Of a stretch of 64,000 nt of DNA, positions 20,901 to 46,096 are shown one piece after another. The stretch is from Spirochaetia bacterium. Lineage in GTDB: Bacteria > Spirochaetota > Spirochaetia > SZUA-6 > Bin103. Below the pieces are notes generated by a model. That model was not told where the DNA came from, searched no databases, and saw only the letters and a program-made list of their open reading frames with translations. The DNA is taken from assembly GCA_965203515.1 (NCBI GenBank), contig OZ241907.1, forward strand, positions 989,730-1,053,729, in the 5' to 3' direction. Numbering within the stretch: position 1 is the stretch's first letter; every line of letters starts with the position of its first letter. A program made the translations under genes and the position numbers.

Positions 20901-21796
20901 GTCAGCGAGTACGCGCCCGCCTGCCCCAGGCGCTTGACGAACAGGTTTGCGGCGACCAGCGCGGCCAGACCGACCAGGTTCTGGAACAGGCCGGCGGCCG
21001 CGGCAAAGCTGTACCGGAACTCCTCCAGCCCCATGCGGTAGATGTAGGTGCCGAGTATGTCGCCGAAATCGTACACCAGCGGGTTGTAGAGGTTGAATAT
21101 CTGGTCGAAGCCGTGCTCCAGGATGTTGCCGAGCTGCAGCAGGAACAGGATGACGATCACGAAGGTGATGGAGGGCAGGGTGATGTGGCGCATCTTCCGG
21201 ATGCGCCCGGCGCCGTCGATCTCGGCCGACTCGTAGAGGCCCGGATCGATGCCGCTGATCGCCGCCAGGTAGATGATCGACCCCCAGCCGATCCCCTTCC
21301 AGATGTCCGACGCCAGGACGATGCCCAGGAACCAGTCCGAGCGCTGCAGGAACAGGATCGGGCCCCCGCCGCCGAGCGCCTCGACCAGCAGGTTGAGCGG
21401 GCCGTTGCTGGCGGTCAGCGGCCGGATCATGCTGGCCACCACCACCCACGACAGGAAGTGCGGCAGGTAGCTGATCGTCTGCACCACGCGCTTGAAGCGC
21501 AGGTGTCTGATTTCGTTCAACAGCAGCGCAAAGACGATCGGCATGAAGAAGGCGATGCCCATGCGCAGCACGCCGTTGATGAAGATCGTGTTGCGCAGCA
21601 CGCGGAAGAAATCGGGGGCCGCCAGCAGGCGGTCGAAGTACTTCCAGCCCGCCCAGGGGCTGCCGAACAGGCCCAGGGTGACGTTGAACTGCTTCCAGGC
21701 CAGCACGATGCCGGCCATCGGCACGTAGCGGAACACCACGAACAGCAGCAACGCCGGGATCAGGAGCAGGTAGCGCTCCCGGTACTTGCGGATCAC
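20897..21796 (-). CDS. carbohydrate ABC transporter permease (MalF/LplB-like)
   Basis: Polytopic permease (FINGVLRMG...EAA-like loop). GTG start at 21796 forms a GTGA overlap with the stop of the large helicase gene. Confidence 0.75.
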   Translation of the reverse strand: MIRKYRERYLLLIPALLLFVVFRYVPMAGIVLAWKQFNVTLGLFGSPWAGWKYFDRLLAAPDFFRVLRNTIFINGVLRMGIAFFMPIVFALLLNEIRHLRFKRVVQTISYLPHFLSWVVVASMIRPLTASNGPLNLLVEALGGGGPILFLQRSDWFLGIVLASDIWKGIGWGSIIYLAAISGIDPGLYESAEIDGAGRIRKMRHITLPSITFVIVILFLLQLGNILEHGFDQIFNLYNPLVYDFGDILGTYIYRMGLEEFRYSFAAAAGLFQNLVGLAALVAANLFVKRLGQAGAYSLT

Positions 21797-26232: not shown

Positions 26233-26310
26233 CGTACCCCATCCGGCGGGGTGGGTGCGTCACCCCCAGTGGACCGGACCGAGCGCCTTGACGCTTGACG
26301 TCCGCCGTCA

Positions 26311-26619
26311 ATGCTCGCCAAGCTGGGGGCCGTCGTGATTCTTGGATACCGGGACAAGCGAACCGAGCGGTTCGCCTCCGGAGAACGGGTCCCGGCGTTC
26401 CAGGAATTCGAGAGGCAGGCGGCGAAGCGACTGGCGATCCTGGACGCGGCACCGTCATTGGACACGTTGAGAGCGTTGCCAAGCAATCGTCTGGAAGCCC
26501 TCAAAGGGGATAGACAAGGGCAGTACGCGATTCGGGTAAACCTGCAATGGCGTATCTGCTTCTCATGGCCCACGAGCAGTCAGGGTCCGATCGATGTCGA
26601 AATCATCGACTATCATTAG
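26311..26619 (+). CDS. higB: HigB toxin (RelE/ParE superfamily plasmid-maintenance killer protein)
   Basis: RLEALKGDRQGQYAIRVNLQWRICFSW...VEIIDYH matches the HigB consensus; precedes higA. A GTG at about 26335 is an alternative start. Confidence 0.8.
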   Translation: MLAKLGAVVILGYRDKRTERFASGERVPAFQEFERQAAKRLAILDAAPSLDTLRALPSNRLEALKGDRQGQYAIRVNLQWRICFSWPTSSQGPIDVEIIDYH

Positions 26620-26678
26620 GAGAGCGAGGTGTAGCAATGTGATACGTAACTGAGCAGCAGCTTATGAACTTTGTCTAA

Positions 26679-26993
26679 ATGGAGATGAGAATGTTTAAGA
26701 GAGCCGTTCATCCTGGAGAGGTTCTGCGAGACGAGCTCGCGGAAATGGGAGTGAGCCGGACCACCTTTGCGCGCGAAATCGCCGTGCCGCCGAATCGTGT
26801 CGGACAGATCATCGCCGGAAAGCGTTCCGTGACGGGGGACACTGCCTTGCGATTCGGGCATTGGTTCGGAGTCGATCCTCAATTCTGGCTGAATCTGCAG
26901 GCTCAGTTCGACTTGGTGACCGCCGATCAGCGAGTCGGAGCGGTCATCCGGGAGCTGCCCACCGCAGACCGAGTCGAGACCGGGTATGAATGA
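26679..26993 (+). CDS. higA: HigA antitoxin (XRE-family HTH)
   Basis: VHPGEVLRDEL...GDTALRFGHWFGVDPQFWLNLQAQFDL is a near-textbook HigA. Confidence 0.85.
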   Translation: MEMRMFKRAVHPGEVLRDELAEMGVSRTTFAREIAVPPNRVGQIIAGKRSVTGDTALRFGHWFGVDPQFWLNLQAQFDLVTADQRVGAVIRELPTADRVETGYE

Positions 26994-26999
26994 ACCCGC

Positions 27000-27974
27000 T
27001 CAACGTTGATCGATCGTCTCGGCTCGCGTGAAGTTCATGTACCTGCCGGACGAAATCCGGCGCGCCCGCTGGCGACCGGTGACGCCGAGCGCGGCCCGCG
27101 TCGCCTCGTCGTCCAGACCGCCATGGCCGATCAAGGCGCGGGCGGCGGCAAGGCTGATCGGCGCTCGCCAGATCGGCCAAGTGAAGGAGAAGGCGCCGTG
27201 ATCCCGGGAGCCGCCGAGTAGCTCCAATCGAATGTCCGGTCCCCTCCGACGCGGCGTCACGGTCAAGACGGACAGACCGACCGCGGCGAGTCGGTTGGCG
27301 CCGTGCTGGGTGGTCTCCTTGGTCTTCGCGTCGGTCGGATCGGTCGCGCGAAGTGCGTGGCGCACGTCCTCATGCGGGTCCCAGCGAAACGACTGCGTCG
27401 CATCCAACCGTTCCCACGGGAGGAACAGCGCTTCGCGAAGGCACTCGCCTTCCGTGATCGCGACCTTGGAGCGGCCCGTGCCTCGGGCAGGAGGCGTCCG
27501 TTCCTGCAGCACGGAGCCCAACCGTTCCAGGAAGTGTTGGCGACCTTGGCCGAACAACAGACACAGCGGCGTCGGTTCCGCTTCCTGTTGCTTGTCCCGA
27601 TCGCGAATCGCGGCGTCACTCACCAGTGCCGCCCACAGGTCGGCGGCATAGCGATCATCGCGGGACGCGCGGAGCTTTCCGGCGGCGTCCTCCGGCGACA
27701 ACTTCAAGTCCTTGACCGGTTCGAAGCGATGCCGGCCAGCCAGTTCCGCCAGCCCGGCCGCTACGGCCGTCACGATCGAATCTTCCGACACCGGCTGAGC
27801 CACGTGCAGCACCGGCCGCACCGGCGGGTCGTCGACAGTCCACGAGACTCGCGGCAGCCACGACGGCTCGGCTTCTTCGAGAACCCGCAGCAGCCCCAGC
27901 AGCGCCATGAAGGCGAGCAGATTGTCCGGCTCGAGGCCGCTCAGACGGTGGCGTATCTCTGCGTTCATTGCCAT
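27000..27974 (-). CDS. CRISPR-associated protein, putative Cas8u-like large subunit (Csb3/Cas8u1-type; tentative)
   Basis: Last gene of the effector operon; its ATG shares one base with the cas3 stop (TGATG). About 324 aa with no family recognisable by eye. Assignment rests on position and the gene order csb1-csb2-cas3-csb3 recalled for type I-U/I-G variants. Confidence 0.4.
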   Translation of the reverse strand: MAMNAEIRHRLSGLEPDNLLAFMALLGLLRVLEEAEPSWLPRVSWTVDDPPVRPVLHVAQPVSEDSIVTAVAAGLAELAGRHRFEPVKDLKLSPEDAAGKLRASRDDRYAADLWAALVSDAAIRDRDKQQEAEPTPLCLLFGQGRQHFLERLGSVLQERTPPARGTGRSKVAITEGECLREALFLPWERLDATQSFRWDPHEDVRHALRATDPTDAKTKETTQHGANRLAAVGLSVLTVTPRRRGPDIRLELLGGSRDHGAFSFTWPIWRAPISLAAARALIGHGGLDDEATRAALGVTGRQRARRISSGRYMNFTRAETIDQR

Positions 27975-30922
27975 CAACTCCCGTCGGACGCTCGATGGTC
28001 GGCAAGGCGCAGGATCGTCTCCAGCCGCGCAAGTCCCCAGGTCCCATAGTTCCGTTTGAGCCGCTCGAACATGGTGGCCCAATCAAGGCCGTCGTAGGCG
28101 AAGGCGAGCGACTGCGGCCCCGGACCGGGTCCCACGCGCCATCGGTCGACATCCAGGCAGCGGGACAGACCGTGCCCGGCGGTGCTTGCCTGCGGGTCGG
28201 CGAAGCCGAAGAACGGCCGCCCCAGTCCGTGGTGGGTCCCGATGAGCCACAACACGAGAGCGGGATCATGCGCCTCCGCAAAGCGACGGTGCGCCATCGC
28301 CATCCGTACCGACAGCGCCTCATGCCGCCACCCGTCCGGCAAGCCGGCTCGCTGCCACGCGTTTGGCGAGGATGGTCTTCCGCTCTTGGCCCGCGGCGGA
28401 CCGTCGGGACGGTTCCACCAGTCGCCGCCGGACAGAAACGTCTGGAAGCGTGAGTCGGCCTTTCCGGCGTCGTGCAGGAACGCGGCGAGGCTCAGGTCGG
28501 CGGCTACCTTCGCCGGCATGCCAAGAGTTCGCGTGAAGCGCTCTACGAACGCGACGACATCGCTGCAATGGTCATTCACCGTGACCGGATGGCCCGGTTG
28601 GCGCGACGTGTGCGAGAGCGTTTCGTCTTCGGTGACCGGCGCTGCCAGATCACTTTCGCTGGATTCTCCCATGAGGCCGTGAGGCGCCACGAGGATGGCG
28701 CCGCTCGCGGGATTGCCTTGTTCGTAAGGGAAGTGCAACCTGATCCGTCCTCTCGCGTCTCTGAGCGACATGAGCGGTGCGCGGACGCAGCGCGGCGGCA
28801 TGTCCTCGTCGGTCGTACCGGCGTCAGCTTCCGCGGTCTCGGCCGGGAGTGCGTCCAGAAGGAGTTCCACCAGCTCGCGCCCGTCGGCCCCGTCGGCTCC
28901 GAGCGCTTCCTCGACGCGTTCCCACTCCGCATCGCTGCGGACCGTGTCGCGGGCTACGCGGACCGAGTAGCGCCGGTGGCGATAGGGCCACATCGCTTCG
29001 TGGGCCATGTCCCTGACGGGCCGTTGTCGATCGGTCGAGCGCCCCGGTTCCTTGGCGATCGGGTTCCAGCCGAATTCGTCGCACCCGCCGTACTCCGCGG
29101 GAACGATCAGCAGGTCGCCGGGTCGCAGGTCCTCCGCGCTGACGATCCCGGTCCGAGGGTCGTCGGACCCAGCCCATCGAAATACCTTCGTTCCCGTCCG
29201 CTCCGTTCGTCCGGCCCGGTCTGACTCGTCCCGCGCCGGCACGTCGGCGATAGCCGCGCGCGCAGAACGGCCGTTCAGCCATGCGGTCACAGACCAGATC
29301 GGAAGCTCAACCATCTCGGCGGTGCGTGGCGGAACCAGCTCCATGATCGTCTTGAGATCGGTGCCGGTTTCGTCGCTCAGGTCGGATGAGTCAATGTCGC
29401 TTCGCCATACGAGGGATACGTCGGCGGACGCGCGATCGGCTCCATGGAGGAACAGACCGACCTCCGGGTCGGCGGCCGGCGGCGGCGAGGTCTGCGACCA
29501 GAGATCGAGATATGCAGGCATCAGAACCGGCGCCTGCGCGCGGGGAGCGGCAAGTTCGGCGGCATCGAGAGCAGCCTCGTTCAGGCGGCGTTGGAACGCC
29601 GTCACGCCGAAGTCCAGGTCACCATCGCCGGCGATCAGGGTAAGGGCGTTCCAGGTCTTGCGAATGCGGTCGCCGTAGATGGGATCGTCGGCCTTCTTGC
29701 TCAATTCGTCGGCCATCACGAGGATGGCGCCGGCTGCCGGAATCGCTCGGCCGGCGCGGTTCAATCGTCCGAAGCGCTGGCGGAGCGCATCGAGAGGGGC
29801 GGCCTGCGTTACCAACCCGTCGAGGTCGAGATCGACCCCCACCTCCAGGCACTGGGTGGCGACGACGAACAAGGCGGCAGCGTCATCGCGGGCGCCGGTA
29901 TGATATGGAGCAAGCTGGCACGCGATCCGGTCTCGGTCGACGTCGCGCGAACGGCCGATCATCAGCAGGGCCTCAGACGAAGATGCGCTCTTGCTCCGCA
30001 GCTTGCGGAAGATCTCGCGCGCCAGATCTACCCGGTTCACGACGACGCCGACCGCCGGCGACGGCACGCCGCCGGTTCGCAACCGATCCGCCATCTTGAT
30101 GGCGGCATCGGTAAAGGCATCCGCAGCGGGTGTCCGAACCGGCTTCTCCAGGCTGGTCGGTTTCGATGCTTCGAGCCGCTCCTTCAGGATGGGATGGACG
30201 CGATCGTCGGGCGTAAGGGAAAAGGTCCGTTGTTCCGAATCCCCCGGCGTCGCCGAGAGGAGAGCGGTCTTGATACGCGTGCCCCCGATCTGTTGCACGT
30301 CGGCGAGGGTACGCCGGAACGGTTCGGACAGATGCGCTTCGTCGAGGAGGATCAAGCTGTCCGAACCCAGGAGGCCGGCGTGTACGGGTCTCATACGGTT
30401 GGAGACCCCGTAACCGCGGAACAGAAGTCGTGATCCGACCTGATCGACGGTCGAGCAGACGATCGTCGGCTGCGTCGGGGTTCGTGCCCAGTCATGTTCC
30501 AGTGGCGCTCCGCCGCGCAGCTTCCGAGCAACGAGCGGCGGCGCGCCGTCGCCGGCCAGGAGTTGCAGCCGGTCCGCGACTTCCCGGACCACCGCGCTGC
30601 CGTTCTTCTCGTCGGACGGAGGAGCGGCGAGGGCGCTGGCTATTCTCTCGGCCCGTGCGAACGCGTCATCCACCACCAGCCGCCGGTCGACGACCAGCGC
30701 CATCCTCAACGCTGCCTTCCGCGGCGCGTCCGCGCGCAGCGCCAGATGAAACACGGCAATATCCAAGGCCGCCGTCTTGCCGGCGCCGGTAGGCAAGTCC
30801 AATACCGGCGGCCAAGCATCGTCTTCGGCAAGCAGATCGATCAGTGCCTGCTGCCAGGGGAACGGATCGTGGTCGTGCACTGCGCGGAAGTAGTGGGCGA
30901 AATCGCTCGGACCAAGCTGCAT
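27974..30922 (-). CDS. cas3: Cas3 helicase with C-terminal HD nuclease domain
   Basis: DEAH-box helicase motifs (LDLPTGAGKT, LLDEAH) and C-terminal HD motifs (FLHDAGK, WRHEALS, GTHHG). HD at the C-terminus is typical of type I-G. Start ATG MQLGPSDF at 30922. Confidence 0.85.
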   Translation of the reverse strand: MQLGPSDFAHYFRAVHDHDPFPWQQALIDLLAEDDAWPPVLDLPTGAGKTAALDIAVFHLALRADAPRKAALRMALVVDRRLVVDDAFARAERIASALAAPPSDEKNGSAVVREVADRLQLLAGDGAPPLVARKLRGGAPLEHDWARTPTQPTIVCSTVDQVGSRLLFRGYGVSNRMRPVHAGLLGSDSLILLDEAHLSEPFRRTLADVQQIGGTRIKTALLSATPGDSEQRTFSLTPDDRVHPILKERLEASKPTSLEKPVRTPAADAFTDAAIKMADRLRTGGVPSPAVGVVVNRVDLAREIFRKLRSKSASSSEALLMIGRSRDVDRDRIACQLAPYHTGARDDAAALFVVATQCLEVGVDLDLDGLVTQAAPLDALRQRFGRLNRAGRAIPAAGAILVMADELSKKADDPIYGDRIRKTWNALTLIAGDGDLDFGVTAFQRRLNEAALDAAELAAPRAQAPVLMPAYLDLWSQTSPPPAADPEVGLFLHGADRASADVSLVWRSDIDSSDLSDETGTDLKTIMELVPPRTAEMVELPIWSVTAWLNGRSARAAIADVPARDESDRAGRTERTGTKVFRWAGSDDPRTGIVSAEDLRPGDLLIVPAEYGGCDEFGWNPIAKEPGRSTDRQRPVRDMAHEAMWPYRHRRYSVRVARDTVRSDAEWERVEEALGADGADGRELVELLLDALPAETAEADAGTTDEDMPPRCVRAPLMSLRDARGRIRLHFPYEQGNPASGAILVAPHGLMGESSESDLAAPVTEDETLSHTSRQPGHPVTVNDHCSDVVAFVERFTRTLGMPAKVAADLSLAAFLHDAGKADSRFQTFLSGGDWWNRPDGPPRAKSGRPSSPNAWQRAGLPDGWRHEALSVRMAMAHRRFAEAHDPALVLWLIGTHHGLGRPFFGFADPQASTAGHGLSRCLDVDRWRVGPGPGPQSLAFAYDGLDWATMFERLKRNYGTWGLARLETILRLADHRASDGS

Positions 30923-33674: not shown

Positions 33675-34460
33675 TCCTGTCTTTGGTCTTCGATCTGAAG
33701 ATCGTCGTCATCCCGTGGGGATGGGTCGTCGAATCCGAACGTGTCGTGTATTTCATGATACTCTCCACGAAACCATGACGTCAACTCTGAACGCCCCGAA
33801 GGGTAGTTACGTATTTCCTTTCGACCGCTTATGATACGCATCTTACGTTCACGATGAATGCGCTTGGTCATCTGCTGTGCCTCCAAATGGATGATTTTGC
33901 TCTGCAAGGATACTCGAAAATACAAGGAGACGAGGCCGGAGTCAAGTGTGGACTCCGGAAAGGAACGGCCGTCTCGGCCGCTCTGCAAGGGTACTCCCTT
34001 TAATCAGGCCCCAGCCCCGATCATGGTGGAGCCGGGGGGCCTCCCAAGATACTGCCTCAAGTCAGCGGTGACAACCTTCGTGCATCGCTGCTGCATCGAG
34101 GGGCCTGCTGAGAAGCCGGTCTTCGCGCTCAAGCTCTGATCCTGCGAGCGGCGCGGCCGGGCGATCCTCCATCGAGCCTGCTCGTGCTCGCCGCGGATCG
34201 GGCCGCGGCGCAGTGATGTGTCGCTGTGGTGTCAAGCACGCTTGCTCAAGGTCGCCGTCCGGTGCAGCCGAACATTGAAGAAGGCAGCCTATCCCGTGGG
34301 GACGAACGGCAGGCACAACGTGGGGCAGGAACCGGTTCCCTCCGATCGGAACCGGGCGGCGGACCGCGCGGGTCCGCGTGCCGACCCCCACCTGAAGCAA
34401 GGGGAGTGCTCATCTTCTCCCGCCGCCGCGCCGGAGGACCGCCCGCTGATTCCGGCGCGC

Positions 34461-36101
34461 ATGGTCAACGAGTTCCAATACTGCCCGCGGTTGGCGTACC
34501 TGGAATGGGTCCAGGGCGAATGGGCGGATTCGGCGGACACCGTGGAGGGGCGCTACGCGCACCGGCGGGTGGACCGCAACGGCGGCGCGCTGCCCGCGCC
34601 GGCGGACGTCGACCGGGAGGTCAAGCTGCATGCGCGGTCGGTCACCTTGTCATCGCCCCGGCTGGGGCTGATCGCGCGCATGGACCTGATCGAGTCGGAC
34701 GGAGCCGAGGTCGTACCGGTCGACTACAAGCGCGGCAAGCGACCGCACGTCGAGCGCGGTGCGTACGAGCCGGAGCGGGTGCAGCTCTGCGTGCAGTGCC
34801 TGATCCTGCGCGAACACGGCTACGCGTGCGACGAAGGCGTGCTGTACTTCGCCGCCAGCCGGGAGCGAGTGCGCGTGGCGTTCGACGACGAACTGATCCG
34901 GACGACGCGGCGGGCGATCAATGGGCTGCGCGACGTGGCCGCCGCCGGCGTGCTCCCGCCGCCGCTGGATGACAGCCCGAAGTGCCCGCGCTGCTCGCTG
35001 GTCGGCATCTGCCTGCCGGACGAGATCAATCATCTCAGCCTGTTGTCCCACTCCCAAGCGGCGCCCCGGCCGATCGCGGTGCCGTCCACCGATGCGCTTC
35101 CGCTCTACGTGCAGGCGCACGGAGCGAAGGTGGCCAAGTCGGGCGAGACCCTGGTCGTCAGCGTCGACGACCGCAAGGTGGCGAAGGCACGGCTCGTCGA
35201 CGTGTCCCAGGTGGTCCTCATGGGAAGCGTGTACCTCACCACGCCGTGCCTGCAGGAACTGATGTGGCGAAACATCCCCGTCACCTGGCACAGCCACGGC
35301 GGTTGGTTCTACGGGCATACGGTCGGCAACGGCCACAAGAACGTGGAACTGCGGACCGCCCAGTACCGGGCGAGCTTCGACGCCTCGACCTGCCTGCGCT
35401 TCGCCCGCGACGTGGTATGGGCCAAGATCGCGAACTGCCGCACCCTGCTGCGGCGCAACTGGAAGCGGCCCGACGACAACCGGGACGTGCTGATCGAACT
35501 GAAGGAGGACGGCCGGCAGGCGCGGCGGGCGGACTCTCTGGCCGCGCTGCTCGGCATCGAGGGGGCCGCGGCGGCGCGCTACTTCCGCGCGCTTCCTGCG
35601 CTGTTGAGCGACAGCGCGGCGGAACAGGCCGCGTTCGACTTCCACAAGCGAAATCGGCGTCCGCCGACCGATCCGGTCAACGCGTTGCTGTCGTTCGCGT
35701 ACTCGCTGCTGGTCCGCGCCTGGACCGTGACGCTCACGGCGGTCGGGTTCGACCCGTTTCGGGGACTGTACCACCAGCCGCGTTACGGCCGGCCCGCGCT
35801 GGCGCTCGACCTGATGGAGCCGTTCCGGCCGCTGATCGCCGACTCGGTGGTGATGCAGGCGATCAACAACGGCGAGGTGCGCCCGGCGGACTTCACGACC
35901 GTGACGGGCAGCGTCGCTCTGACCCCGGACGGCCGCCGCCGCGTCATTTCGGCCTTCGAGCGCCGTCTGAGCCATGAGATCGTCCATCCGCTGTTCGGCT
36001 ACCGCGTCAGCTACCGCCGGCTGATGGAAATGCAGGCGCGGCTGCTGGGTCGCTTCCTGCTGGGAGAGATACCGGTGTATCCGAACTTCACCACCCGGTG
36101 A
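34461..36101 (+). CDS. cas4-cas1: Cas4-Cas1 fusion
   Basis: N-terminal Cas4 with [12 protein letters not shown] and C-terminal cysteines ([11 protein letters not shown]), then a Cas1 body. ATG at 34461; ORF is open upstream to 34218 (GTG). Confidence 0.9.
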
Positions 36102-36111
36102 CGGCGGACTG

Positions 36112-36402
36112 ATGGCCGACCATTTGTACTTGGTCGCCTATGACATCGCCGATCCCCGGCGCTGGCGCATGGTGTTCAGGCTGATGAACGGATACGGGGA
36201 ATGGCTTCAGCTCTCGGTGTTCCAGTGCCGGATGAATCGCACCCGTCGAGTGGAGTTGGTTGCGCGTCTCGACGGAGTGATAGATCATGGCGAGGATCAT
36301 GTGGTGCTGGTCGACCTGGGTCCCGCGGACAACGTGCAGCCGCGCGTCGTGAGCCTGGGGAAGCCGTTCCACCCGGTGCGGCGGGAGCCGATGGTCGTAT
36401 GA
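36112..36402 (+). CDS. cas2: Cas2
   Basis: 96 aa, [19 protein letters not shown]...; typical Cas2 immediately after cas1. Confidence 0.9.
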
Positions 36403-36475
36403 CCGCCCGCCGGCGAGTAGCGAGCGCTTCGGTGCCGCCGGGTACCCGGGGAGCGCTCGCGGGTAGCGTAGGTCT

Positions 36476-36504
36476 TTGACATTCTGAACGTTATGGTATA
36501 TGGT
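36476..36504 (+). promoter_or_regulatory. CRISPR leader promoter (TTGACA-17-TATGGT) within the 36403-36610 leader
   Basis: AT-richer leader between cas2 and the first repeat; -35 TTGACA at 36476-36481 and -10 TATGGT at 36499-36504, oriented toward the array. Confidence 0.45.
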
Positions 36505-36610
36505 GAAGCTGTCCCGTGAGGGGGGTCCGCTCATCATGCCATCGGTCTTCCGTCCAGCTCTCGCGGCCCGATTGTCTATTCGACGACCCGTCGAGAGTTG
36601 GACGGGGTAC

Positions 36611-39600
36611 GTTTCCGGGGGAGAAATCCCCCGGCCTCATTGAAGCGAGTCGAAGCGCGGGCCGGACGGCGAGCCATGGCAGCCGGTTTCCGGGGGAGAA
36701 ATCCCCCGGCCTCATTGAAGCATTTTCTTCGTGACCGAAGAAAAATGGAAGTCCTTTTCGTTTCCGGGGGAGAAATCCCCCGGCCTCATTGAAGCGGACC
36801 CGCAGGCGGCGCAGCGCTCCTGAGACACGAGGTGTTTCCGGGGGAGAAATCCCCCGGCCTCATTGAAGCGCCACCGCGTCGACCAGCACCTGCAGATCCT
36901 CGGGCGGAGTTTCCGGGGGAGAAATCCCCCGGCCTCATTGAAGCGCCCAGACCTGTAGCGGAGACCCGTCAGCCATGCGCACCTGTTTCCGGGGGAGAAA
37001 TCCCCCGGCCTCATTGAAGCAACGTGGTCGAAGTCTGCGACTCGACCTGGCTGCGGTAAGTTTCCGGGGGAGAAATCCCCCGGCCTCATTGAAGCCAGCT
37101 CCGCAAAGGAGCCGCAGAGCTCGGGACATCGTTGTTTCCGGGGGAGAAATCCCCCGGCCTCATTGAAGCTCTCGTCGTATCGGGCCCGCCGTGCCGTCCA
37201 TTTGTCGTGTTTCCGGGGGAGAAATCCCCCGGCCTCATTGAAGCGAGACTCGAGCGGGCGGACGCGCTGGCTCCCCCCCGGCGGTTTCCGGGGGAGAAAT
37301 CCCCCGGCCTCATTGAAGCAAGAATCTTGTCAAGTATTGCTTTGGTGTATGACTTCGCTGCGGGTTTCCGGGGGAGAAATCCCCCGGCCTCATTGAAGCG
37401 GCAGGTGCTGCAGTCACGTCTGGTGCTCTGATCTGTTTCCGGGGGAGAAATCCCCCGGCCTCATTGAAGCGGTCGACTCCGGGTCCTCCCAGCGTGTGTC
37501 GAGATAGGTTTCCGGGGGAGAAATCCCCCGGCCTCATTGAAGCAGATTATCCGGCGTCAGCTCGTCGCGGCTGCTGCACGCGTTTCCGGGGGAGAAATCC
37601 CCCGGCCTCATTGAAGCGATGAGTGCATAGCACGATGGACGCGGACGGCCAATCGGTTTCCGGGGGAGAAATCCCCCGGCCTCATTGAAGCGGGTACAGC
37701 GTCAACCGAGCCCAACACGTGTTGGGTAGTTTCCGGGGGAGAAATCCCCCGGCCTCATTGAAGCATTCAACCCTCCTACCTTGAGTATACGGAATACCTG
37801 GGGTTTCCGGGGGAGAAATCCCCCGGCCTCATTGAAGCACAAGGCTCAGACCGGCCAGGACAATGCCGGCATGGGAAGTTTCCGGGGGAGAAATCCCCCG
37901 GCCTCATTGAAGCGTGGACGGAATGGCAGACGATCGGGGCGCAGCGAAGGGGGGGCGTTTCCGGGGGAGAAATCCCCCGGCCTCATTGAAGCACCTTCTT
38001 GGCGCCCCAGCCCTTCGCGGCCAGCTCCGGGTTTCCGGGGGAGAAATCCCCCGGCCTCATTGAAGCACGCTCCACCTCCGGCTGCCGCTGCGCCCGGTGC
38101 TCCGCGCGTTTCCGGGGGAGAAATCCCCCGGCCTCATTGAAGCGCCTCGACCATCTTGTCCTGCCAGGCGGATACTCCAGTTTCCGGGGGAGAAATCCCC
38201 CGGCCTCATTGAAGCCTGGCGGTGGACTACCTGTTCAACCCGATCCCAGACGTTTCCGGGGGAGAAATCCCCCGGCCTCATTGAAGCGACCCGTTATTAT
38301 CTGATTCCACCCACAGGCCAAGGGTGTTTCCGGGGGAGAAATCCCCCGGCCTCATTGAAGCCCAATCTTGCGTTGCGCTTGGTGGAGCGAGGTCTCATTG
38401 AGTTTCCGGGGGAGAAATCCCCCGGCCTCATTGAAGCATGACCAGTACAGGCGGACAATATCGATTCGTTCAGCTAGGTTTCCGGGGGAGAAATCCCCCG
38501 GCCTCATTGAAGCAGATGTTCGGCGGTGATGCGGCGGACGTGCTCGGTACGGCGGTTTCCGGGGGAGAAATCCCCCGGCCTCATTGAAGCGTATTATGGC
38601 GTGCGCACCGTTGCAGCAATTGACGTCTCAGTTTCCGGGGGAGAAATCCCCCGGCCTCATTGAAGCTACCACTGCAGATCGGTGACGGCAGCGGCCATCA
38701 GCGCGTTTCCGGGGGAGAAATCCCCCGGCCTCATTGAAGCATGTTCAGCGCGCCGTTGTCCGTGATATTCCAGAGCAGTTTCCGGGGGAGAAATCCCCCG
38801 GCCTCATTGAAGCTGGCAGATGGCCGTGTCCAGTACAGAGAAGCTGGGTTTCCGGGGGAGAAATCCCCCGGCCTCATTGAAGCATAACGTTACCAACGTT
38901 TTTTTCGTGATCGGAGTTGACTGTTTCCGGGGGAGAAATCCCCCGGCCTCATTGAAGCAGCCGGCGTAGGTCTCGCCGTCGTCAAAGGTGACGGTGTTTC
39001 CGGGGGAGAAATCCCCCGGCCTCATTGAAGCTCAAGTAGTTTGCGGTATTTCTGACAGGCTGTTCAGGTTTCCGGGGGAGAAATCCCCCGGCCTCATTGA
39101 AGCGACAAGTAGTATGGATGCCATCGAAGACGGCATATCCATGTTTCCGGGGGAGAAATCCCCCGGCCTCATTGAAGCCTGGACGTGCTGACCGGCGACC
39201 CGGACCTGCCGCACCTGCAGTTTCCGGGGGAGAAATCCCCCGGCCTCATTGAAGCTTTTCGTGATTTTCCCGAAAAGAATTTGCATCCGGGGGTTTCCGG
39301 GGGAGAAATCCCCCGGCCTCATTGAAGCTGGCGCGTGAGCAATAATTCGGCGCAGAATTTCAAGGTTTCCGGGGGAGAAATCCCCCGGCCTCATTGAAGC
39401 ACGGACGGCCGACCACAAGCCCACGCTACTAGAGTGGTATGTTTCCGGGGGAGAAATCCCCCGGCCTCATTGAAGCAGCAGCCCGAAGACGCCCTCGTCG
39501 ATGTGCGACATCGCCGTTTCCGGGGGAGAAATCCCCCGGCCTCATTGAAGCGCGTAGGCGATCGTCGTCGAGATCGACGCGATCTTGCCTGTTTCCGGGG

Positions 39601-40676
39601 GAGAAATCCCCCGGCCTCATTGAAGCGCCTTGTCGCCCTTGGCCTTGTCGCCGTCCGCAGACCCCTGCAAGTTTCCGGGGGAGAAATCCCCCGGCCTCAT
39701 TGAAGCGCGGCCGACCTTCCGGCCCTCCTGGAAGAGCTTGTTGAGTTTCCGGGGGAGAAATCCCCCGGCCTCATTGAAGCGCGGCGATCGGCGTGTCGTC
39801 GTCGAGCGAGGCCAAAGGGGTTTCCGGGGGAGAAATCCCCCGGCCTCATTGAAGCAGAGGAATCAACTTTATAGACCAAAGGAGAAACAGAAGTTTCCGG
39901 GGGAGAAATCCCCCGGCCTCATTGAAGCGAGGCCAGGCGGCAGCCGTCACGAACATCAACCAAGGCGCGTTTCCGGGGGAGAAATCCCCCGGCCTCATTG
40001 AAGCTTACGCACGAAGGCTGATTTGTCAGTCGGGGAGCCGGGTTTCCGGGGGAGAAATCCCCCGGCCTCATTGAAGCGGAGACGGTCAAGGGTAGGAGCC
40101 GCCCGTAGCCCGGTACGGTTTCCGGGGGAGAAATCCCCCGGCCTCATTGAAGCACACAAACGGTGAAAAGTGATAGGATGACAGTATGAGTTTCCGGGGG
40201 AGAAATCCCCCGGCCTCATTGAAGCAAGGCTGACGGAACGCAGGGGCACAGCTTGTTCAATGCGTTTCCGGGGGAGAAATCCCCCGGCCTCATTGAAGCC
40301 TGAATGCCTCTGCTGCACGTTGACGAAGTTTCCGAGTTTCCGGGGGAGAAATCCCCCGGCCTCATTGAAGCGTCGGCCGTCGGCCGTCCACGCCGGCGGC
40401 GTGCTGCTAGTTTCCGGGGGAGAAATCCCCCGGCCTCATTGAAGCGTCGCCGCCTGCGACGTGGAGTTGACCGACGACGGCACGGACGTTTCCGGGGGAG
40501 AAATCCCCCGGCCTCATTGAAGCGTCAACGTGCGCGGCGGACACGAGCTCGTAGGCCTGTTTCCGGGGGAGAAATCCCCCGGCCTCATTGAAGCAACAAA
40601 TACGACGAGACGAACGGAGCCCCGATCTTCGGGATCGACAGTTTCCGGGGGAGAAATCCCCCGGCCTCATTGAAGC
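36611..40676 (+). CRISPR. CRISPR array, leader-proximal part: about 55 repeats of GTTTCCGGGGGAGAAATCCCCCGGCCTCATTGAAGC (36 nt)
   Basis: Perfect 36-nt repeats with 35-45 nt unique spacers (period about 72-76). The repeat has an internal hairpin CCGGGGGA-GAAA-TCCCCCGG and ends ATTGAAGC. Confidence 0.97.
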
Positions 40677-40786
40677 TGCAACAACGTGGTCGTCACGGCG
40701 ACTAACAATGAGGGGCTTCCGGGTTTCGTGTGGGTAGGGCGCCCTGACGGTGGCGGTGGCGCCGCCAGCAAGGCTACGCTGGCGCC

Positions 40787-41752
40787 ATGCGTGACAAGGA
40801 ACTGTACGGCAGGATTCTGGGCGTCGAGGCACCGTGGCGAGTGGCCGACGTCGAACTGAACCTTCAGCAGGGCGAGATCGTGGTCCACGTCGAGCACGGC
40901 GGGCCGCTCACCTGCCCGCGCTGCGGCCAAGCCGCGCGCCGCTACGACAGCAGGCAACGGCGGTGGCGCCATCTGGACACCTGCCAGTACCGCACGGTTC
41001 TGGCCGCCGACGTACCGCGGTCTCAGTGCCGGCAGCACGGGGTCAAGCAGATCGAGGTGCCGTGGAGCGAAGGCCGCTCGCGGCTGACCGCGCTGTGCGA
41101 GGCGGTCGTGATCGACTGGCTGCAGCACGCCACGATCGCGGCGGTGGCGCAGCAGATGCGGCTCAGCTGGGACGAGGTCGACGGAGTGATGCAGCGCGCG
41201 GTGCACCGCGGCTTACAGCGGCGCGAGGTGCAGCTGCCGCCGCGGATCGGCGTGGACGAGACGTCGTTTCAGAAGCGCCATGAGTACGTGACGGTGATCA
41301 ACGATCTGGACGGGCACGTCGTGCACGTGGCCGATGGCCGCCGCAAGGAGGTGTTGGAGGAGTTCTACCAGCAGTTTGACCATGAGCAGTTGGCTGCTGT
41401 CGAGACGGTCGCCATGGACATGTGGGAGCCGTACATCATCGCGACCGCCGCCTACGTGCCGGACGCGGAGCTCAAGATCGCGTTCGACAAGTTTCACGTC
41501 GCCCGGCACCTCGGCAACGCCGTTGACCAGGTACGGCGAGCCGAGAGCCGCCGGCTGGCCGGCAGCGGTGATGATCGGCTGAAGGGCAGCCGCTATGCGT
41601 GGCTGACCAACCCCGAGCACATGGATGCCGAGCGTTGGCGGCAGTTCGCTGACTTGCGGGACAGCGCGCTGCAGACCGCGCGCGCCTGGGGCTACAAGGA
41701 ACATGCGATGACGCTGTGGAAGTACCGCTCTCGCGGGTGGGCGTGGAGTTGA
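40787..41752 (+). pseudogene. ISL3-family transposase, N-terminal portion (interrupted by IS3 insertion)
   Basis: 322 aa with a zinc-finger-like N-terminus (CPRCGQ) and the ISL3 DDE region; ends ...LWKYRSRGWA where the nested IS begins. Confidence 0.8.
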
Positions 41753-43063
41753 CCCGCTTTCGTGGACACATCAAGAGTGAGGACGAGAGGAGGGAATACG
41801 ATGGCGAGAACGCATCAAGCGTATCCACAGGAGTACCGCCAGCAGATGGTCGAGCTGATCCGTGCCGGCCGCACGCCGGAGGACCTGGCGCAGGAGTTTG
41901 AGCCGTCTGCCGGCTCGATCCGCAACTGGGTCGCGCAGGACGAGCGCGACGCCGGGCAGCGCAGCGACGGGCTCATCGGTGAGGAACGTCAGGAGTTGCG
42001 CCGCCTGCGCCGCGAGAACAAGCAGCTACGGATCGAGCGTGACATCTTAAAAAAGCAGCGGCTTGGTTCGCACGGGAGAGCGACTCGATCCCGGAGCGGG
42101 ATTCCGGTTCGTGAAGGCGAATCAGGCCACGTGGCCGGTGCGCACCCTCTGCCAGGTGCTGGGTCTCTCCCCCAGCGGCTACTACGCATGGGTGCGCCGC
42201 AGGCCGTCGGCGCGAGCGCGGCGGGACGCGCAGTTGATGGGGCGCATCAAGGAGGTCTGGACCGCCAACCGCGAGGTGTACGGCCGGCTGCGGATACACG
42301 CGGAGTTGCAGGCAGCCGGCGAACGGGTCAGCGCGAAGCGGGTCGGGCGACTGATGCGGCGCGCCGGGATCGCGGGGGTGAGCCGCCGGCGTACGACGCG
42401 CACGACTACGCGCGAGCAGCGAGCGGAGCGGGTAGCCCCAGACTTGGTAGAGCGGAACTTCGCGGCGACCGAGGCGGATCGGTTGTGGGTGGCCGATATC
42501 ACCTATGTGACGACGTGGGCGGGATTTCTGTACGTGGCGGTGGTGCTTGATGCGTGGAGTCGGCGCGTGGTCGGCTGGTCGATGGCCGCGCACCTGCGGA
42601 CCGAACTGGTCCTGGATGCGCTGAACATGGCGATCTGGCGGCGTCGGCCGCAGGGCGTGGTGCACCACAGCGACCAGGGCGCGCAGTACACGTCGATCGC
42701 CTTCGGGCAGCGGTGCCGGCAGGCCGGAGTGAGACCGTCGACCGGCTCGGTGGGCGATGCGTATGACAACGCGCTGTGCGAGAGCTTCTTTGCGACGCTG
42801 GAGTGCGAGTTACTGGATCGTCACCGGTTCGGCGGTCGGGCCGAAGCGCGCATGGCGGTATTCGAGTTCATCGAGGGGTTCTACAACCGGCGCCGGCGCC
42901 ACTCGGCACTGGGCTACCGGTCGCCGGTTGCCTTCGAGGCCGACGAAGCCGAGGCAGCAGCATGACGATCGGCTTGACGGCCAACGCCATCGCGAGGACT
43001 GTTCCTCTGCGACGGGGTTGTGCACATCAGAGGTTACCCGTCCACCAAACCGGGACAACTCCA
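41744..43063 (+). mobile_element. IS3-family insertion sequence nested inside the ISL3 transposase gene
   Basis: About 1320 bp. Terminal inverted repeats TGGAGTTGACCCGCTTTCGTGGAC at 41744 and GTCCACCAAACCGGGACAACTCCA ending at 43063 (19/23 matches), starting TG and ending CA. Likely 3-bp GCG duplication. Removing it restores the ISL3 reading frame (RGWA-RKAWQAWY). Confidence 0.7.
41801..42965 (+). CDS. IS3-family transposase OrfA/OrfB with programmed -1 frameshift
   Basis: OrfA (MARTHQAYPQEYRQQMVELIRAG, HTH) to about 42060; slippery A-AAA-AAG at about 42045. OrfB in the -1 frame (42063-42965) carries an rve DDE integrase core (WVADITYV ... HSDQGAQYTS ... ESFFATLECE). Confidence 0.85.
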
Positions 43064-43361
43064 GGCGCGCAAGGCGTGGCAGGCGTGGTACCGGTCGGCG
43101 ATCCGGTGTCGTCTGGAGCCGGTCAAGCGGGTAGCGCGGATGGTCAAGCGTCATCTGGAAGGGATCGTGACGGCGGTGGTGCAGGGGGTGAGCAACGCGC
43201 GGGCGGAGTCGATCAACGCGGGGGTGCAGAGGTTGAAGTACGCAGCGCGCGGCTTTCGCAACCGGCAGAGGTTCCGCAACGCCATCTACTTTCACCTCGG
43301 CGGCCTTGACCTCTACCCTGCCGGTGTCGGCCGTGACCACCTCGTCCACACGAAAGCCTGA
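43020..43361 (+). pseudogene. ISL3-family transposase, C-terminal portion
   Basis: QARKAWQAWYRSAIRCRLEPVKRVARMVKRHLEGI...AAR GFRNRQRFRNAIYFHLGGLDL matches ISL3 transposase C-termini. Confidence 0.8.
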
Positions 43362-43379
43362 AGACCCAACAATGATTGG

Positions 43380-46096
43380 GTTTCCGGGGGAGAAATCCCC
43401 CGGCCTCATTGAAGCATCTGGCGGCTCGGCTACCGCTTCACGGTCTGCACGCCGTCCAGTTTCCGGGGGAGAAATCCCCCGGCCTCATTGAAGCAGGCCG
43501 GTCCCACGATGCGGTTCAGCGTCTTGTAGAGTTTCCGGGGGAGAAATCCCCCGGCCTCATTGAAGCGACGTCGTGCAGCGGGGCGCTGACGCCGAAGTAG
43601 CTGAGCCCCGGCAGTTTCCGGGGGAGAAATCCCCCGGCCTCATTGAAGCGACCTGGCTGCGGTGACGGGCTGCCCGACCTGGAGAGGGTTTCCGGGGGAG
43701 AAATCCCCCGGCCTCATTGAAGCTGTTGCAAAGACTCGATATGCATTCGGTAGTTGCGCATGTTTCCGGGGGAGAAATCCCCCGGCCTCATTGAAGCTTT
43801 ACCGCCGATCTGTGTCTTGTACTCGGCCGCGGACCGGGTTTCCGGGGGAGAAATCACCCGGCCTCATTGAAGCGAAATTCATCGACCTGACGCGAGAATT
43901 CATCCAGGACGGTTTCCGGGGGAGAAATCCCCCGGCCTCATTGAAGCCCTCCTATCGTGGTCGCATATTCCGCGGCCGAGCGGTTTCCGGGGGAGAAATC
44001 CCCCGGCCTCATTGAAGCAAGGTCATGCGGCCGTCGCCGGGACCCCATGTATCGCGTTTCCGGGGGAGAAATCCCCCGGCCTCATTGAAGCGCACGCCGC
44101 GCGGCTCGCTGCCGTGGGACCGCGAGGCGGTTTCCGGGGGAGAAATCCCCCGGCCTCATTGAAGCACTGCTTTGCCGATGAACGACTCGTCCCACTTGGC
44201 TTTGAGTTTCCGGGGGAGAATCCCCCGGCCTCATTGAAGCCCTTCGAGCTTGACCTTCACCGTCTCCCCCTCCTTCGAGTTTCCGGGGGAGAAATCCCCC
44301 GGCCTCATTGAAGCATGGCGGGGCCGGATGCCGGCGACGGCGAGGATCAGGACGATGTTTCCGGGGGAGAAATCCCCCGGCCTCATTGAAGCTTTGCGCA
44401 ACCGCTTGACGCTCGTAAAGCGCCTACCTTGTTTCCGGGGGAGAAATCCCCCGGCCTCATTGAAGCCGCTGTCCCCGGTGGTGCGGTCGCGCCTGGTCGC
44501 CCACGTTTCCGGGGGAGAAATCCCCCGGCCTCATTGAAGCAATGGTTTGTTCAATGGTGGACGCTGGTTTCCGGGGGAGAAATCCCCCGGCCTCATTGAA
44601 GCATGCAGGCCGTCGCCGCCACGACGACGATCGACGACGTGGGTTTCCGGGGGAGAAATCCCCCGGCCTCATTGAAGCCGGTTGCCAGCGGCAAACTGCA
44701 CCGCCACCGCACGTTTCCGGGGGAGAAATCCCCCGGCCTCATTGAAGCATCACCCGGTAGTCCGCCTCGATCTGCCGCCGCACGGCGTTTCCGGGGGAGA
44801 AATCCCCCGGCCTCATTGAAGCATGCACTCCTCGATCAGCTTGTGCGCCACCTGCAGCCGCTCGTTTCCGGGGGAGAAATCCCCCGGCCTCATTGAAGCG
44901 TCTGTGCCGAGCGGTCGGAAGACGATGATCCACGGCTGTTTCCGGGGGAGAAATCCCCCGGCCTCATTGAAGCGCCGCGCCGATCTTCGCGTCGGTGATT
45001 GCGGCCACTGCCAAGTTTCCGGGGGAGAAATCCCCCGGCCTCATTGAAGCGTCTGTGCCGAGCGGTCGGAAGACGATGATCCACGGCTGTTTCCGGGGGA
45101 GAAATCCCCCGGCCTCATTGAAGCGAGGCGGCGGCGAAGTCCACCCCCGACGCCTCCAGGCTGTTTCCGGGGGAGAAATCCCCCGGCCTCATTGAAGCAT
45201 CGGGGAAGTGAGGGCCGGCAAGCGGCGGGGCGTGGTGCGTTTCCGGGGGAGAAATCCCCCGGCCTCATTGAAGCAACTCCGCCTCGGCGCCGTGAAGCGC
45301 GCCCTTGGCCTTGTCGGCGTTTCCGGGGGAGAATCCCCCGGCCTCATTGAAGCGGATCGTCCCAGGCGCCGGTCTGCCCCTCGATGCCGAAGTTTCCGGG
45401 GGAGAAATCCCCCGGCCTCATTGAAGCAGCATGGCAGCCGTGATCCTGTCTACCTTCACAGCCGCGGTTTCCGGGGGAGAAATCCCCCGGCCTCATTGAA
45501 GCGCGCCCGGCACGTGGCGCGCGCGCACCGGACAGGCGACAGTTTCCGGGGGAGAAATCCCCCGGCCTCATTGAAGCTAGCGCCCCGGGGTCCGCCGGCG
45601 CTGGATCGACGCCCCGTTTCCGGGGGAGAAATCCCCCGGCCTCATTGAAGCGTGGTCGAGAGACTGGCGCCGGACGCCACCCGCCCCTTGTTTCCGGGGG
45701 AGAAATCCCCCGGCCTCATTGAAGCGTCGGCTGGCCGTGGACGTGAGCCGGCATCTCGCTGGAGGTTTCCGGGGGAGAAATCCCCCGGCCTCATTGAAGC
45801 GATGTCTGACCCGGCGGCGCCGCCGGACCCTCTGACCGTTTCCGGGGGAGAAATCCCCCGGCCTCATTGAAGCACTTCCGATACGCCGTCGACCGAACGC
45901 GGCCGTGGAAGTTTCCGGGGGAGAAATCCCCCGGCCTCATTGAAGCCTGTCCGATGCGGTGGCATCGGTCTTCGGCCTGGGACATGTTTCCGGGGGAGAA
46001 ATCCCCCGGCCTCATTGAAGCGGTCCGAGGCTGTGCATGCTCCCGCGGCGGCCCACGTCGGTTTCCGGGGGAGAAATCCCCCGGCCTCATTGAAGC
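43380..46096 (+). CRISPR. CRISPR array, leader-distal part: about 37 repeats of the same 36-nt unit
   Basis: Same repeat as at 36611-40676. Degenerate variants at about 43838 (CACCCGG), 44206 and 45319 (35 nt, one A lost). A duplicated spacer at about 44900-44937 and 45051-45088. Array ends at about 46096. Confidence 0.97.

Follow-up and report, generated by a model that had tools for sequence, protein, structure and literature searches.

A type I-G CRISPR array split inside a spacer by an ISL3 element with a nested IS3-family element

The window, a stretch of 64,000 nucleotides from an uncultured high-GC Spirochaetia-like bacterium, harbours a type I-G (formerly I-U) CRISPR-Cas locus with its adaptation genes beside the array. 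A TPP enzyme encoded in the window shows 77-84% identity to "MAG: Spirochaetia bacterium" genomes. Profile searches matched the type I-G signatures Cas3g, Csb1/Cas7g, Csb2 (Cas5-Cas6), Cas4g/Cas1g and Cas2 (TIGR02621 with 773 bits, TIGR02570, TIGR02165, NF049935 with 834 bits, TIGR01573 and NF049934). With respect to these genes, the cas set upstream of the array is complete, and its reading frames are open. The cas4g/cas1g fusion gene (34218..36101, + strand) is given as the longest ORF, so its true start may be further downstream; its product matches Pfam Cas_Cas1 (7e-91) as well as Cas_Cas4, and its NF049935 score compares with a cutoff of 560. It is followed by cas2 (36112..36402, + strand; Pfam CRISPR_Cas2 7.9e-16; TIGR01573). 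The identical Cas2 protein is encoded on related contigs, where it lies beside the same leader. This putative leader (36403..36610, + strand) contains a promoter-like site, TTGACA-17-TATGGT, located by a promoter scan at 36476-36504, and both L005 and L006 have it ahead of their first repeat. With its start 208 bp past cas2, the array adjoins the adaptation genes.

The array is built from a 36-bp repeat, GTTTCCGGGGGAGAAATCCCCCGGCCTCATTGAAGC, of which a repeat scan of the window returned 90 copies with at most one mismatch. Two more repeats, each with a 1-nt deletion, bring the total to 92, and the Rfam family CRISPR-DR16 (RF01330) gives 91 matches, all on the + strand. The repeats form two blocks, likewise on the + strand throughout. 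The leader-proximal block (36611..40676) comprises 55 identical 36-bp repeats and 54 spacers according to both the repeat scan and Rfam. The distal block (43380..46096) comprises 37 repeats and includes all three variant repeats, one with a C>A exchange (43838-43873) and two from which an A is deleted (44206-44240 and 45319-45353). Spacers of the array have a median length of 38 nt and range from 26 to 47 nt. The initial annotation had placed the leader on the 55-repeat side, and both this placement and the orientation of the array are borne out by the cas4g/cas1g-cas2 genes and the promoter-like site just upstream.

Between the two blocks lies a gap of 2703 bp (40677-43379), in agreement with the 2.7 kb of foreign DNA that had been described between the leader-proximal 55 and the distal 37 repeats. 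This gap is the sole point in favour of two separate CRISPR arrays flanking a transposon island by chance. Such a coincidence has a negligible probability, because the repeats are identical and lie on one strand, and because neither a degenerate repeat nor a second leader is found in the gap, including the segment between the IS end and repeat 56. The gap holds IS DNA and 39 nt of spacer, and nothing else. The earlier proposal of one original array of about 92 repeats is therefore confirmed. The proper annotation is one type I-G array of 92 repeats rather than two arrays, interrupted by a dead ISL3 copy together with an IS3 copy, the integrity of which hangs on a single homopolymer base.

The ISL3 element has a length of 1332 bp and spans 40712-43367. 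ISL3 family members have terminal inverted repeats and generate an 8-bp target duplication, and both properties are found here. The left inverted repeat (IRL, 40712-40733) matches the right one (IRR, 43346-43367) at 19 of 22 positions, with 0 such pairs expected in shuffled sequences, and a perfect duplication of the octamer AACAATGA is located at 40704-40711 and 43368-43375. The left portion of the element (40712..41743, + strand) carries the IRL and codons 1-319 of the transposase gene, which starts with an ATG at 40787; the right portion (43064..43367, + strand) carries the transposase C-terminus and the IRR. The interrupted spacer is divided into a left part of 35 nt (40677..40711, + strand), the final 8 nt of which are the first copy of the octamer, and a right end (43368..43379, + strand) composed of the second copy and the last 4 nt, TTGG. 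Excision of the element in silico restores a 39-nt spacer, TGCAACAACGTGGTCGTCACGGCGACTAACAATGATTGG, the length of which is close to the array median. The 22-bp imperfect inverted repeats, the 8-bp duplication and the restored spacer are thus as the initial annotation had reported them. The reconstructed empty-site junction reads ...GGCGACTAACAATGATTGGGTTTCC....

The transposase gene of the ISL3 element is itself cut, after ...YRSRGWA, by a 1320-bp IS3-family element (41744..43063, + strand). Imperfect inverted repeats ending in TG...CA and a short target duplication of 3-5 bp, both traits of the IS3 family, are present. The inverted repeats (IRL 41744-41767, IRR 43040-43063) agree at 21 of 24 positions and read TGGAGTTG... 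and ...CAACTCCA. According to a frame analysis, OrfA starts at 41801, the OrfA tail (42055-42114) lies in the -1 frame, and the OrfB frame with the rve domain extends over 42051-42965, all on the + strand. OrfA matches HTH_Tnp_1 (3.7e-07) and OrfB matches rve (2e-24) together with HTH_21, rve_3 and rve_2 in Pfam. The length, ends and family first assigned to this element hold. The target duplication, initially taken to be GCG, required correction: it is the 4-bp sequence GGCG, present on both flanks (41740-41743 and 43064-43067), where intact ISL3 siblings carry a single GGCG. A 3-bp duplication was ruled out, since it leaves the ISL3 reading frame broken; only 4 bp restore the frame of 416 aa. 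The copy of the IS3 element in L001 (2944-4264) is flanked by a 3-bp duplication, TTC. It is 99.7% identical to the window copy, from which it differs by three substitutions and one A that is missing in the window.

Once restored, the 416-aa ISL3 transposase matches DDE_Tnp_ISL3 (4e-69) over the whole profile (1-240/240), as well as Zn_ribbon_ISL3 and HTH_Tnp_ISL3, and reaches 309 bits with the equivalog model NF033550 (cutoff 180). It has 93% identity to its cluster representative, P0121, and is 3-6 residues away from intact 416-aa siblings. Sibling copies of the element were found at 8 other sites; they measure 1331-1332 bp, have matching ends, and are flanked by a perfect 8-bp duplication in five cases. 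Three copies aligned over their full length (L007-L009) show 94.3% nucleotide identity, possess exactly the IRL and IRR ends of the window element, and read ...GGGTGGGCGCGGCAGG... with a single GGCG at the point of the IS3 insertion. The left end of the ISL3 element had no match in the JGI metagenomes. The window ISL3 is a member of its family and non-autonomous, its transposase ORF being interrupted after codon ~319, and the original verdict that it is dead stands.

The same cannot be said of the claim that the nested IS3 element looks intact. The slippery site A-AAA-AAG on which this view relied is indeed present (42049-42055) and in phase with OrfA, but a -1 shift at this site misses OrfB. 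The slippery run of the window copy is A6, and OrfB occupies the +1 frame relative to the OrfA start; a -1 shift at TTA-AAA-AAG leads into OrfA's own C-terminal tail, producing a 104-aa OrfA and no OrfB. The canonical -1 frameshift therefore cannot yield an OrfAB transposase from the sequence as read. Four IS3 copies found elsewhere, which are 98.9-99.7% identical to the window copy, all read TTAAAAAAAGC with an A7 run. In more than 100 relatives, OrfA has 104 aa and matches at full length, and only the A7 version reproduces such an OrfA. A conceptual OrfAB fusion made with A7 and a -1 shift scores 399 bits with NF033516 (cutoff 160) and covers the profile completely (1-369/369). The four A7 siblings thus conform to the canonical IS3 organisation, in which OrfA and OrfB are linked by a -1 frameshift on an A-rich heptamer: they have the 104-aa OrfA and an OrfB in the -1 frame behind the slippery heptamer, collinear with NF033516. 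The window copy, with its A6 run and its OrfB in the +1 frame, does not.

The A6 run may reflect either a genuine mutation or a homopolymer error of long-read sequencing. In the latter case, the true run would be A7, under-called in a long-read metagenome assembly, and the IS3 element would actually be intact. The chance of this is considerable, though somewhat short of even. It is favoured by the A7 run in all four siblings, which include the short-read scaffolds L002-L004 and the 101x contig L001, and by the fact that, the missing A aside, just three substitutions separate the window copy from that of L001. Furthermore, related contigs stem from long-read assemblies in which errors of this kind occur; the 3x contig differs from the window over 6.9 kb by 8 homopolymer-type indels and by no substitutions. 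However, the window is self-consistent at all exact repeats and every cas ORF is open, so it is not obviously error-rich. Runs of A are also genuine mutational hot spots, and the P0031 copy, which probably belongs to the same genome, reads A5 and is independently truncated, which demonstrates the existence of decayed copies. The contig with this A5-type copy has a length of 4,135,234 bp.

Searches with the half-spacer and with ORFs found no uninterrupted version of the array. The 35-nt left half-spacer had no match in genome_contigs or metagenome_contigs, and three ORFs in or beside the array, together with one recorded array ORF, retrieved nothing beyond L006 when used as queries. The pre-insertion state is therefore reconstructed and not observed. 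L006, the only same-strain contig found, has spacers 1-49 in common with the window and stops six repeats short of the insertion. Related arrays reached via a member of the Cas2 cluster (L010-L019) consist of the same repeat in 53 to >129 copies and have no spacer in common with the window; apparent shared spacers were artefacts of variant repeats. Two 20-mers of the restored spacer, used to look for its protospacer, had no match in viral_contigs. Array spacers that might target the two IS elements gave chance-level partial matches only (23/39 and 24/37).

Multi-copy insertion sequences and CRISPR repeats both provoke misjoins in metagenome assemblies, and no independent contig was found across the junctions. 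Two arrays, or distant parts of one, may thus have been joined artificially through a repeated IS. Such a chimera, however, would not account for a perfect 8-bp outer duplication plus a perfect 4-bp inner one, for the typical length of the spacer to which the two halves add up, or for the exact in-frame closure of the ISL3 ORF. An assembly artefact is accordingly very improbable.

The structure very probably results from two successive, untargeted transpositions into one long type I-G array. In the first, the ISL3 element would have entered the AT-rich octamer in the 55th spacer by DDE transposition, thereby duplicating 8 bp and destroying that one spacer. In the second, an IS3-family element of the 1321-bp type would have entered the ISL3 transposase gene at codon ~319, duplicating GGCG. 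This is the probable order of events, and the insertions may well have been neutral. The truncated transposase would leave the ISL3 element immobilised, unless a sibling copy provides transposase in trans. The IS3 copy as read would have lost one A from its A7 run, and the N-terminus of OrfA, its C-terminus and OrfB would therefore lie in three different frames.

The insert may attenuate the expression of the older, distal spacers, as first suggested. A scan of the + strand across the insertion found no terminator-like site. As both IS genes are co-oriented with the array, read-through or transcription driven by the IS is equally possible. Structurally, the 37 distal repeat-spacer units are intact, and they would be processed given read-through of the 2.7-kb insert by transcripts that start at the leader or in the IS genes. 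The locus offers a natural test of whether pre-crRNA transcription still reaches the distal third of a long array past a co-oriented insert of this size.

Nested ("Russian-doll") insertions are common in IS-rich genomes, and the present case does not differ from them in principle: a second IS sits in the transposase gene of the first and inactivates that element, with the two target duplications preserved. As an instance of a familiar kind of event it is clean but ordinary, since the occurrence of insertion sequences within CRISPR arrays is well established. A close parallel is IS6110, an IS3-family element that divides the ancestral direct-repeat/CRISPR array in two in the Mycobacterium tuberculosis complex; the array is a tolerated or hot-spot target there, and the insertion serves as a strain marker (PMC7820667). 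The window array is also split into two blocks by an insertion sequence. IS6110, however, lies in or overlaps a repeat at a documented hot spot, whereas the primary element here is an ISL3 inside a spacer, at a putative hot spot at most, and the IS3-family element of the window entered the ISL3 element and not the array. Tn7-like transposons that target cyanobacterial CRISPR arrays insert in the spacer area without damage to the repeats or to the array downstream (PMC11837452). They use Tns/TniQ machinery and recognise the repeat at a defined distance, in contrast to the single DDE transposase of the ISL3 element, the array insertions of which occur at differing distances and most copies of which lie outside arrays. 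Transposases of ISL3 and IS3 are all that the insert encodes; it has neither TnsA/B/C nor TniQ and is not a Tn7-like transposon. No new mechanism is revealed, and the value of the locus is mainly practical: a nested insertion with both duplications kept is a precise strain marker and gives the relative order of events.

Insertion sequences in arrays do recur among related strains, namely in L015 and L010. L015 represents a second, independent array insertion of the same ISL3 element, in an array with different spacers; it matches the left end of the window element at 54 of 54 nt, has the same orientation and starts 2 nt past a repeat. The ISL3 lineage might therefore be array-prone, entering the CRISPR arrays of this population more frequently than by chance, in the manner of IS6110 at the DR locus of M. 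tuberculosis. The GC content of the arrays (about 0.60, compared with 0.67-0.70 for the genome) is in line with this, as ISL3 targets lean towards AT-rich sequences. Even so, the idea is unlikely. Slightly more doubtful still is an actual preference of the lineage for the very large arrays of this high-GC Spirochaetia population, with the window and L015 as its two independent insertions; it might be due to the lower GC content of the spacer DNA or to a repeat-linked feature. If true, these bacteria, which are presumably host-associated, would provide insertion sequences with "safe havens" in their arrays, and array expression would recurrently be truncated or rewired by IS insertion. However, none of 8 distinct sites of copies fetched via the transposase protein is in an array, and the L015 case came from deliberate sampling of arrays. 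In these IS-rich genomes, the arrays also offer 7-10 kb of DNA that is presumably neutral. The window insertion lies 35 nt past the repeat and that of L015 lies 2 nt past it, so the fixed spacing of targeted elements is lacking. The array of L010 carries a different IS, with a Y1 transposase, which fits a passive landing pad.

The window probably derives from an uncultured, high-GC (~0.67) member of the Spirochaetia. One TPP-dependent enzyme that it encodes shares 77-84% identity with proteins from several Spirochaetia MAGs assembled from long reads, and identity drops to ~35% in the matches that come next. The CRISPR-Cas system of the window is of type I-G. A Cas4g/Cas1g fusion gene (34218-36101, + strand) and cas2 (36112-36402, + strand) lie upstream of the array, and Csb1/Cas7g, Csb2, Cas3g and a Cas3-extension protein are the products of a divergent - strand operon; the reading frames are open throughout these cas genes. 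Beside the cas operon, the stretch at 21793-28082 carries an ORF of 1479 aa. The corresponding gene of relatives encodes a UvrD-like helicase and is followed there by a HigB-like toxin gene. The stretch has the appearance of a defence island.

Across the full window, the repeat GTTTCCGGGGGAGAAATCCCCCGGCCTCATTGAAGC occurs in 90 copies at ≤1 mismatch, all on the + strand. Together with two further repeats, each lacking one A of an AAA run (44206-44240 and 45319-45353), the array comprises 92 repeats, 55 at 36611-40676 and 37 at 43380-46096, which is exactly the tally of the initial annotation. The Rfam CRISPR-DR16 model matches 91 of the 92, again all on the + strand. Among the 84 normally sized spacers, lengths run from 26 to 47 nt with a median of 38 nt, the 26-nt extreme being found at 44541-44566. 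The sole oversized interval between repeats is that at 40677-43379 (2703 bp), and no degenerate repeats were found within it or past either end of the array. Identical 38-nt spacers (GTCTGTGCCGAGCGGTCGGAAGACGATGATCCACGGCT) occur in the distal block at 44900-44937 and 45051-45088 with one other spacer between them, which could mean that one spacer was acquired twice or that the block was rearranged locally.

The 208 bp from cas2 to the first repeat contain a promoter-like TTGACA-17-TATGGT on the + strand and are conserved in L005 and L006, two other contigs with this leader. Three repeats are variants, namely a C>A substitution at 43838-43873 and the two identical 1-nt deletions (AAA to AA), and all three belong to the 37-repeat block. 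As the deletions sit in a homopolymer, they could be assembly errors. The exclusively distal variants, together with the conserved 208 bp and the promoter-like site before the first repeat, support the original assignment of the 55-repeat block, downstream of the cas genes, as leader-proximal and the 37-repeat block as distal. L006 shares both the leader and the first 49 spacers with the window and is therefore the same strain; its contig stops six repeats before the insertion.

The oversized interval opens with 35 nt of spacer, TGCAACAACGTGGTCGTCACGGCGACT followed by AACAATGA. The left end of an ISL3 element, GGGGCTTCCGGGTTTCGTGTGG, begins immediately afterwards at 40712, and its right end, CCACACGAAAGCCTGAAGACCC, stops at 43367, followed by AACAATGA, TTGG and the next repeat. 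Direct re-reading thus recovered the inverted repeats, which match at 19 of 22 positions, and the AACAATGA duplication where they had been placed. With 3 mismatches allowed, a search of the window for these ends returned no sites beyond the two, and 100 shuffled sequences gave none at all. Joining the flanks minus one AACAATGA yields a 39-nt spacer. The transposase ORF starts at 40787, is broken after ...KYRSRGWA and closes to 416 aa once the inner IS3 element is taken out. The restored protein has full-length Pfam matches to DDE_Tnp_ISL3 (4e-69), Zn_ribbon_ISL3 and HTH_Tnp_ISL3, scores 309 bits against NCBIfam NF033550 (cutoff 180), and has database relatives of 416 aa at 100% coverage; those in the closest cluster are just 3-6 residues away from it.

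The DNA of these closest members was taken as L007-L009 and L099-L106. Their ISL3 elements measure 1331-1332 bp and occupy eight distinct sites, five of which show a perfect 8-bp duplication. The copies in L007-L009 carry exactly the two ends seen in the window. Because independent copies share the size and, in L007-L009, the ends, the ISL3 boundaries are confirmed. Sibling copies disrupt N6_N4 methyltransferase, ABC-2 permease and MmeI-like restriction-modification genes (L099, L105 and L106, at ~1426-2757 in each), and the copy in L103 adjoins a ThsB-TIR gene; several insertion sites therefore lie in defence-type genes. The L103 copy (1426-2757) is flanked by the unrelated 8-mers TATCGGGA and GCTTTTCA, which suggests recombination between two copies, not simple insertion.

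The architecture initially annotated, an array split within a spacer by an ISL3 element that itself carries an IS3 element, therefore stands, with two factual corrections that both concern the inner element. This IS3 element spans 1320 bp (41744-43063), beginning with TGGAGTTGACCCGCTTTCGTGGAC at 41744 and closing with an inverted partner (21/24) that ends at 43063. Its termini are TG...CA, and GGCG flanks both sides. The duplication had been given as likely GCG; it is in fact the 4-bp GGCG, because, of the lengths tried (2-5 bp), 4 bp alone brings the ISL3 ORF back into frame (2, 3 and 5 bp were ruled out on this ground) and because intact siblings of the ISL3 element show ...CGCGGGTGGGCGCGGCAGG... 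across the insertion point, with GGCG once. Another copy of the IS3 element (L001:2944-4264) has the 3-bp duplication TTC, so the element makes 3- or 4-bp duplications. IS3-family duplications usually measure 3-5 bp, a range that covers both. OrfA carries the Pfam domain HTH_Tnp_1, and OrfB HTH_21, rve and rve_3. The sibling copy in L003 (1329-2298) is interrupted past position 1230 by ~1 kb containing a 353-aa ORF that had no Pfam match, followed by a diverged (92%) IS3 right end.

The second correction is that the IS3 element, previously read as intact, is not so as the sequence stands. OrfA runs from 41801, with TTA-AAA-AAG in phase at 42047-42055. Past this slippery site, the zero frame continues for 165 more codons, which matched no known protein family; the -1 frame reads AAAWFARESDSIPERDSGS and then stops, and OrfB lies in the +1 frame. 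From this arrangement, a canonical -1 shift would give OrfA and no OrfAB transposase. Adding one A to the run of six (A7 instead of A6) gives a 104-aa OrfA and places OrfB at -1 from the heptamer A-AAA-AAA. More than 100 database proteins, each likewise 104 aa long, match this OrfA with 100% coverage (best 99% identity), and the conceptual A7/-1 fusion spans positions 1-369 of the 369 of NCBIfam NF033516 (IS3 family transposase) with 399 bits. The four DNA copies at 98.9-99.7% identity, each from another sample than the window and three of them short-read scaffolds, all carry TTAAAAAAAGC (A7); a further copy, P0031, which probably belongs to the same genome as the window, has a run of five. 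The window's element differs from that in L001 by three substitutions and the missing A. A true frameshift is somewhat the likelier explanation of this missing A. An assembly error is quite conceivable: the related contigs are long-read metagenome assemblies, and over 6.9 kb compared with the window, the low-coverage L006 shows eight homopolymer-type indels and not one substitution.

The ISL3 and IS3 genes are co-oriented with the array, and no terminator-like sites were found on the + strand between 36000 and 46500. The effect of the insert on distal crRNA expression could therefore go either way, and the attenuation proposed earlier is a suggestion for one of the two directions.

An uninterrupted array was not found in the genome collection, the metagenome collection or the protein look-ups. 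A Cas2 cluster member led to ten related loci. The window's repeat recurs in eight of them, in arrays with 53 to >129 copies, and the remaining two break off at the first repeat; none has spacers in common with the window. ISs are also present in two of these arrays. In L010, a 602-bp insert between two repeats (18630-19231) encodes a 151-aa Y1_Tnp (IS200/IS605-type) protein. In L015, the contig end (14406-14497) consists of a repeat, TT and 54 nt in which every base agrees with the left end of the window's ISL3. This is a second, independent ISL3 insertion in the same orientation, into an array with different spacers. This recurrence prompted the idea that ISL3 targets arrays, which is improbable: none of the eight distinct sites reached via the transposase itself lies in an array, and the insertions in the window and L015 are at unequal distances from the repeat. 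Moreover, the arrays represent 7-10 kb of lower-GC, presumably dispensable DNA within IS-rich genomes. Passive accumulation of ISs in arrays explains the data.

Nested ISs are commonplace in IS-rich genomes, and ISs within CRISPR arrays are already well documented. The two array loci of Mycobacterium tuberculosis stem from a single ancestral array that was split by IS6110, an IS3-family element, and the DR region of this species counts as a hot spot (PMC7820667). Cyanobacterial Tn7-like elements target arrays, where they integrate within the spacer area (PMC11837452). The present case, an ISL3 element in a spacer of a type I-G array and an IS3 element nested in it, with both duplications kept, is a new instance that does not differ in kind.

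In the related genomes represented by L010 and L011 (1-10291), the same cas4/cas1 fusion-cas2 module and repeat adjoin type III-like genes (Cas10/Csm1, Csm2, RAMPs and Cas_APE2256) instead of type I-G effectors. The window segment at 4146-4178 agrees with spacer 2 of the L010 array in 31 of 35 positions (E = 1e-9). This segment, judged by eye, may encode a nucleotide-binding (Walker-A-like) motif, and the match may simply mirror its conservation.
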